A stretch of 64,000 nt of DNA from contig OZ024765.1 of NCBI GenBank assembly GCA_964016885.1, forward strand, positions 17,546,001 to 17,610,000, in the 5' to 3' direction. Positions 17,043-17,416 of this stretch are shown here, piece by piece (within the stretch, counting starts at the first letter, position 1; each line of letters starts with the position of its first letter). Origin of the DNA: Eledone cirrhosa. Taxonomy: Eukaryota. The translations under genes and the position numbers were made by a program. The notes below the pieces were generated by a model. That model was not told the origin of the DNA and ran no database searches. It saw only the letters and a program-made list of their open reading frames with translations.

Positions 17043-17416
17043 AACGGTGATGAATTAGTTTTGCGAGGTTTTTGATATGAAATCGTGTATTGAAACAAAT
17101 ATTGTTATACTTGGGGAGGATCATATTTGTGTAATAATATTGCCAGATTTAATAACAGAACACACTCACTGTTTGGTTGATTTTGGCTTCCGTATCTTTT
17201 ATATCAGTTAATTTAATTTACTCGGTCCTCAATGTCTAACATTGACTGACCAACGGTCAAAAATACAGATATAATATAGACACAAAGACATATATATAGT
17301 CTAACATATATATATAAAATATACAGAAGCGGAAACCAACCAAACAGTGAGTTTGTCCTATCATTAATTCTGGCAATATTATTACACAAATATGACCCTC
17401 TCCATGTATAACAATA
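17043..17416 (-). mobile_element. Family K fold-back element
   Basis: Inverted arms 17100-17205 / 17312-17416; homologous to 60388-60718. Confidence 0.8.

Follow-up and report, generated by a model that had tools for sequence, protein, structure and literature searches.

Genomic 5′ junctions of the repeat family K of Eledone cirrhosa are concentrated at the base where its hammerhead ribozyme is predicted to cut. An earlier note on a 64,000-nucleotide stretch of contig OZ024765.1 (the window, in whose coordinates all positions are given) had proposed a histogram of 5′ truncation points for all copies of this family as a check on a single suggestive insertion. Run genome-wide, the histogram placed junctions in the three bases at the cut ~5-fold above upstream and sequence-matched controls. 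The enrichment is real and position-specific, and it is found in an otherwise ordinary Penelope-like element (PLE). Its best explanation, which we regard as probable though well short of certain, is that a few percent of the template RNAs had cleaved themselves before they were copied. The peak in family K thus likely means that the predicted hammerhead cuts in living germ cells.

Family K is the pLTR of a TA-targeting EN+ Penelope-like retrotransposon. YVDD and a YIGE-type endonuclease motif are found in ORF pieces whose ends lie ~300 bases upstream of K hammerheads, and a C-x4-C-x2-C linker occurs in three of the fetched loci (L081, L058 and L209). A CX2-5CxxC linker before the endonuclease is described as a Neptune/Nematis trait in the portion of PMC8557442 covered here; judged by likeness of this motif, the K element carries a putative Cys linker of the Neptune/Nematis type. 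Atlas neighbours score 0.95-0.97 and include one cluster with GIY-YIG in 48% of its members; Pfam returned no hits for either of the two pieces searched. Direct pLTRs lie ~4.1 kb apart in four loci (L208, L209, L210 and L227), inverted arms are seen in the window, and there are two recurrent 3′ ends (tail). In the 3.0-Gb genome, 4,806 sites match exactly an 18-base anchor taken from downstream of the cut. A non-LTR retrozyme, consisting of non-coding tandem units without an ORF, was considered and ruled out because family K is joined to a reverse transcriptase-endonuclease ORF.

The hammerhead is intact in a family K copy near 60 kb of the window (60384-60619, minus strand; ~−81 to ~+155; from sequence, BLAST and alignment), the second K copy in this stretch, beside which lies an inverted 3′ arm (60620-60713, plus strand; BLAST). 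A motif scan and pairing table place a minimal type I hammerhead at 60530-60575 on the minus strand. Its elements stand in the type I order: the 5′ arm of stem I (60575-60572), CUGANGA (60571-60565), an extra base after A9 (60564), a 6-pair stem II (60563-60548), GAAA (60547-60544), and a short, minimal stem III with the CUU triplet (60543-60538), after which the cut is predicted between 60538 and 60537. The 18-mer quoted in the earlier note is present here on the minus strand, but at 60547-60530, one base away from the 60531-60548 given there. The hammerhead of the sister family S (61021-61063, plus strand; motif scan and pairing table) has the same core spacing with other stems and a predicted cut at 61059/61060. 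The core elements and the extra base are kept across family K, its subfamily K3 and family S, whereas the sequence of stem II differs in S. Among the first four positions of stem I, three are paired in K, four in S, three in the S copy of the window and two in K3. In family K, stem I contains a mismatch, and the fold of lowest energy is a structure other than the hammerhead; the predicted cut register is supported because family S, with the same spacing, has a fully paired four-base stem I. A search of 60480-61120 with Rfam covariance models gave 20 matches at E ≤ 10, none of them to a hammerhead.

Further hammerhead-like cores belonging to other families occur at 17706 (minus), 29483 (minus) and 44020 (minus)/44047 (plus), one of them ~270 bases from the 17 kb insert described below. 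Between the K and S copies, a long hairpin of another repeat occupies 60809-60897, with Rfam matches of microRNA type that are far under gathering scores. Over the whole window, Rfam gave repeat-driven microRNA-type matches only, among the 150 of 427 matches listed.

The insert near 17 kb spans 17044-17414 and, as read from the sequence, is flanked on either side by (TA)n target runs (17028-17043 on the left and 17415-17432 on the right, neither assigned a strand). Its main arm (17044-17306, minus strand) was assigned by aligning it with copy L021 and with the copy near 60 kb. This arm begins at the predicted cut in the family K pLTR (+1, at 17306), extends to the distal 3′ end (~+260) and is ~95% identical to the nearest fetched copies. 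By alignment, an unstranded five-base linker of TA repeat (17307-17311) joins it to an inverted arm (17312-17414, plus strand) that runs from pLTR position +98 to the proximal 3′ end (~+200) and matches the main arm at 91 of 104 bases. The arms are ~5-7% diverged from their nearest fetched relatives, and the event is therefore old. BLAST within the window pairs 17148-17306 with 60384-60537 and ends exactly there, and the pairwise alignment of the two copies starts in both at the first base past the predicted cut. The earlier note had thus correctly described a copy whose homology ends at the predicted hammerhead cut, 17306 corresponding to the position directly after CUU where the hammerhead is intact, and whose main arm is linked to an inverted one by a few TA repeats. 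The 5′ junction (17306/17307, minus strand; alignment) can be placed only to within one base, since the first T may derive from the TA linker.

Junctions were counted by genome-wide exact-pattern searches which required, in addition to a downstream anchor, that two or three conserved upstream G/C bases be missing, j being the apparent start relative to the cut. Pattern totals are complete; position classes were taken from the first 100 matches listed and then scaled. Each listed row was classed by eye as a junction, a shifted intact core or an internal deletion, and a script reached the same class at 117 of the 120 loci that were fetched. Each anchor was scaled by how often it matched in a set of 97 unbiased copies (44, 41 and 41). 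The unbiased copies were used for this scaling only; none of their 97 local alignments starts at −2 to 0, where ~3 were expected, in a sample too small for a 3% peak. A DNA search spanning the hammerhead was left out of the counting, as it yields intact copies by design, and one pattern search (2,392 matches) that was dominated by subfamily K3 was also excluded.

Genome-wide, 3,796 intact family K copies with a 23-base anchor were counted. The window 0 to −2, in which the three upstream core bases are absent, gave 166 matches; the 100 listed comprised 69 junctions (42, 14 and 13 at 0, −1 and −2) and 31 shifted intact cores, which were dropped. The upstream control, −3 to −13, yielded 58 junctions among the 100 of 126 matches listed, with 29 shifted cores and 13 deletions dropped, and a control at −27 with the same TGTT start, covering five positions, yielded 34 junctions in all 66 rows (six at its position 0; 21 shifted cores and 11 deletions dropped). 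After de-duplication, with same-locus pairs counted once, the rate ratio of the cut window in family K was 5.05 (CI 3.5-7.4) against the upstream bases and 5.0 (CI 3.2-7.9) against the same-TGTT site. A single search from −2 to +5 gave 11, 9, 24, 5, 7, 1, 5 and 1 junctions, or 44 at −2 to 0 versus 19 at +1 to +5, among the 100 of 141 matches listed (37 dropped), a ratio of 3.9 (CI 2.2-7.2) after de-duplication. The excess divides 0.66/0.18/0.16 over 0, −1 and −2, with the peak on the cut base, as expected for a single true site at 0 with flanks that match T by chance. The peak recurs in two sequence subfamilies with ratios of 4.95 and 4.5, the latter computed after the removal of 10 rows possibly from a core variant. 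Uncorrected, the excess junctions make up ~2.4% of copies; the figure rises to 4.2% on the assumption that 57% of flanks pass the filter. The junction flanks are diverse, with excess junctions next to TA runs, inverted arms and unique sequence alike. Small internal deletions also recur, in which parts of the hammerhead are lost by way of short matches; the bases lost include ~8 just past the cut.

A single junction by itself proves nothing. Between ~55 and 80% of the junctions in the cut window are excess over background, and the one at 17 kb may therefore itself be a chance truncation. Because this share has to be multiplied by the probability of the cause, we regard the origin of that junction from a self-cleaved RNA as a serious possibility that we would not quite back.

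The enrichment is weaker or absent in the two related sets. Family S had 37 junctions at −2 to 0 versus 18 at +1 to +3 (among the 100 of 264 matches listed; 45 dropped) and 60 over ten upstream bases (among the 100 of 276 matches listed; 40 dropped), for a cut-to-control ratio of 2.0 (CI 1.3-3.0) despite having the best stem I, with four of four pairs. K3 is a young subfamily with 1,969 anchored copies; in L208, L209, L210 and L227 its pLTRs are spaced 4.1 kb apart and enclose near-intact ORFs with frames of 931-1,047 residues. Its ORF bears an asparagine-rich insert, and a 9-base duplication follows directly after its predicted cut. The K3 hammerhead keeps CUGANGA, GAAA and a UH triplet and has a stem II identical to that of K, together with an altered stem III (G-U) and two pairs in stem I. 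There is no peak in K3: 17-18 junctions fall at the predicted cut (all 40 rows, 9 dropped) versus 23-25 at a decoy 9 bases downstream, which has the same local sequence and is not a predicted cut. The decoy search (all 49 rows, 9 dropped; reversed-pattern control, 4) placed 25 junctions in the 3-base window versus 15 in the next five bases. The decoy is itself 2-3-fold above its neighbours, and local context can therefore explain family S entirely. The junction rate at the family K cut is 3.3-fold above that at the K3 cut, but only 2.3-fold above that at the K3 decoy (CI 1.5-3.9). The absent K3 peak fits a weakened ribozyme, the weakness being a prediction from its stems, and it can also be read against the self-cleavage model.

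The proposal in the earlier note that the template was a self-cleaved RNA, and the insertion a fossil of in vivo ribozyme activity, is therefore upheld in part. The ~5-fold enrichment centred on the cut base in family K speaks for it, whereas family S reaches only 2.0-fold and K3 has no peak, and the step from enrichment to activity is one that we infer.

A second, sharp junction peak falls at −83 relative to the cut, on the first A of a AAAGATGGCG motif (near window position 60619), with 30 rows versus 2 and 5 at the next two bases (among the 100 of 129 matches listed; 16 dropped). Its copy-number scale rests on 7 of 97 copies and is untrustworthy; the within-search ratio alone was used. The peak likely marks the transcription start, and the AAAGATGGCG motif presumably resembles a YY1 site. 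In 14 of the 30 rows, G or GA stands directly upstream, possibly a copied cap. This peak suggests that RNA 5′ ends do leave such marks in the genome, and that the start site lies elsewhere than the cut. The S copy of the window (~60964) likewise begins at a AAAGATGGCG-type motif.

In the mechanism that we propose, an endonuclease would nick a (TA)n run, and the reverse transcriptase would start at either of two internal sites, ~200 or ~260 bases past the hammerhead, and copy toward the RNA 5′ end. That end would usually lie far upstream (uncut read-through), sometimes at −83 (the likely start) and sometimes at the cut (0), and short matches would then allow the cDNA end to be joined either to the target or to another cDNA in inverted orientation. 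The sampled peak copies span from the cut to one of two fixed 3′ ends, at which 14 of 15 junction arms terminate. On this model the insert near 17 kb would be two-armed, its main arm having been copied to the end of a cleaved RNA. Positions +1 to +8 of family K can pair with the proximal 3′ end (8/9), and such pairing could, going by the sequence, bring the cut end near the start of reverse transcription.

Several other processes might produce a peak at this position. The one that we take most seriously, while judging it unlikely, is that the local sequence creates the peak with no RNA cut, whether by short matches at TA/TG repeats, by fold-back on the TA run, or by a near-match between the post-cut bases and the inverted 3′ end. 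The K3 decoy obtains its 2-3-fold from context alone, family S does not exceed this decoy level, and ~10 of the 69 junction rows are fold-backs while 3 of the 69 use the 3′-end near-match (by eye, among the matches listed). However, an identical TGTT start at −27 stays at background, family K remains 2.3-fold above a decoy about equally far from the TA run, and the excess appears alike in TA runs, inverted arms and unique flanks. We give slightly less credence to a reverse transcriptase that halts on uncut RNA, at a hammerhead core that is folded or bound by protein, and comes off the template there. The predicted fold does pair this region, and according to the portion of PMC11167929 covered, the protein of the element is needed for hammerhead cleavage, so that it acts on this part of the RNA; yet no peak is seen where the enzyme would first meet stem II (7 of 58 junctions at −10/−11, among the matches listed) or at +1 to +5 (again among the matches listed), and K3 lacks a peak with an identical stem II.

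A genomic histogram cannot tell what made an RNA end, and the end could be genuine but due to a second transcription start or a host nuclease. This seems to us quite improbable, since the likely start site has its own peak at −83 and the peak at the cut agrees to the base with an independently predicted register that is backed by stem I of family S. Breakage or re-targeting of DNA copies at the cut position after insertion is largely excluded. In vitro, the pLTR is a substrate of the element's own Penelope endonuclease (PMC11167929, portion covered), and small deletions starting near the cut do occur, but 3′-side ends, in which an intact hammerhead is followed by foreign sequence, number at most 18 among the 100 listed of 102 matches, at least 6-fold fewer than the scaled ~115 5′ junctions at the cut. 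With so few reciprocal ends, the cut is not a DNA break point; moreover, the upstream half of the hammerhead lies within 1.5 kb of none of 15 junction arms.

A controlled peak at the cut base is an indirect sign of cleavage where it is heritable, and the size of the family K peak suggests an effect on a few percent of copies. Families K (peak) and S (weak) and subfamily K3 (none) form a natural test set. A more ambitious account, which we offer tentatively and, taken as a whole, with more doubt than belief, is that the genome holds a base-precise record of germ-line self-cleavage by the minimal hammerhead of a PLE, that the cut RNA is diverted into short ORF-less stubs rather than full-length copies, and that the youngest, ORF-intact subfamily K3 expanded after its ribozyme had weakened. 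Were this so, histograms of junctions could serve to order such ribozymes by their activity in vivo, whichever assembled genome they lie in.

The K junction peak bears on the question of whether PLE hammerheads are active in vivo, on which the 2024 study of Poseidon_Ac saw no RNA ends at the cut (PMC11167929); here and below, statements on published work refer to the portions of the sources covered. The in vivo activity of minimal hammerheads, reported in the end repeats of nearly all PLEs, has been called "still a mystery" (PMC7761336), that of PLE minimal hammerheads "still unclear" (PMC8557442), and that of Penelope hammerheads is also described as unknown in PMC6765202, which cites PMC5785218 for the cleavage of PLE hammerhead dimers. 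Cervera and de la Pena (2014, PMC4209133) state that there is no in vivo evidence, and the portion of their paper covered contains no junction analysis. Our literature search, outside whose coverage most subscription papers and supplements fell, found no report of PLE 5′ junctions enriched at a hammerhead cut.

As an element, K belongs to a known group and is unremarkable within it. Like the minimal type I hammerheads of EN+ PLEs (Cervera and de la Pena 2014, PMC4209133), that of family K is located in the pLTR, with a 6-pair stem II, a short stem I, an extra base between positions 9 and 10.1 and almost no stem III, and both kinds of element have many dispersed truncated copies; the K stem III loop differs from that motif in not being a clean palindrome. 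Metazoan non-LTR retrozymes (PMC7229834) likewise have type I hammerhead repeats and are thought to be moved by Penelope proteins, but they consist of tandem units that are non-coding, their hammerheads are canonical and efficient, and they have circular RNAs, whereas K is the pLTR of an autonomous element.

In Poseidon_Ac of the green anole (Frangieh et al. 2024, PMC11167929), AT-rich DNA is nicked on both strands, reverse transcription starts at two internal sites, and protein-assisted hammerhead cleavage occurs in vitro, where cleavage is nevertheless not needed. The K element shares the two internal starts, the AT-rich targets and the pLTR hammerhead; in contrast to Poseidon_Ac, it bears a Cys linker resembling that of Neptune/Nematis, and its genomic junctions peak at the cut, where no RNA-seq reads of Poseidon_Ac begin or end. 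The reasoning from junctions to ribozyme has a precedent in R2, whose HDV-like ribozyme is likewise reflected in genomic 5′ junctions, with variable junctions arising via short matches (Eickbush et al. 2013, PMC3774820). Full-length R2 elements have their 5′ end set by the cut, whereas in family K the junctions at the cut account for ~2-4% of copies and belong to short, ORF-less stubs.
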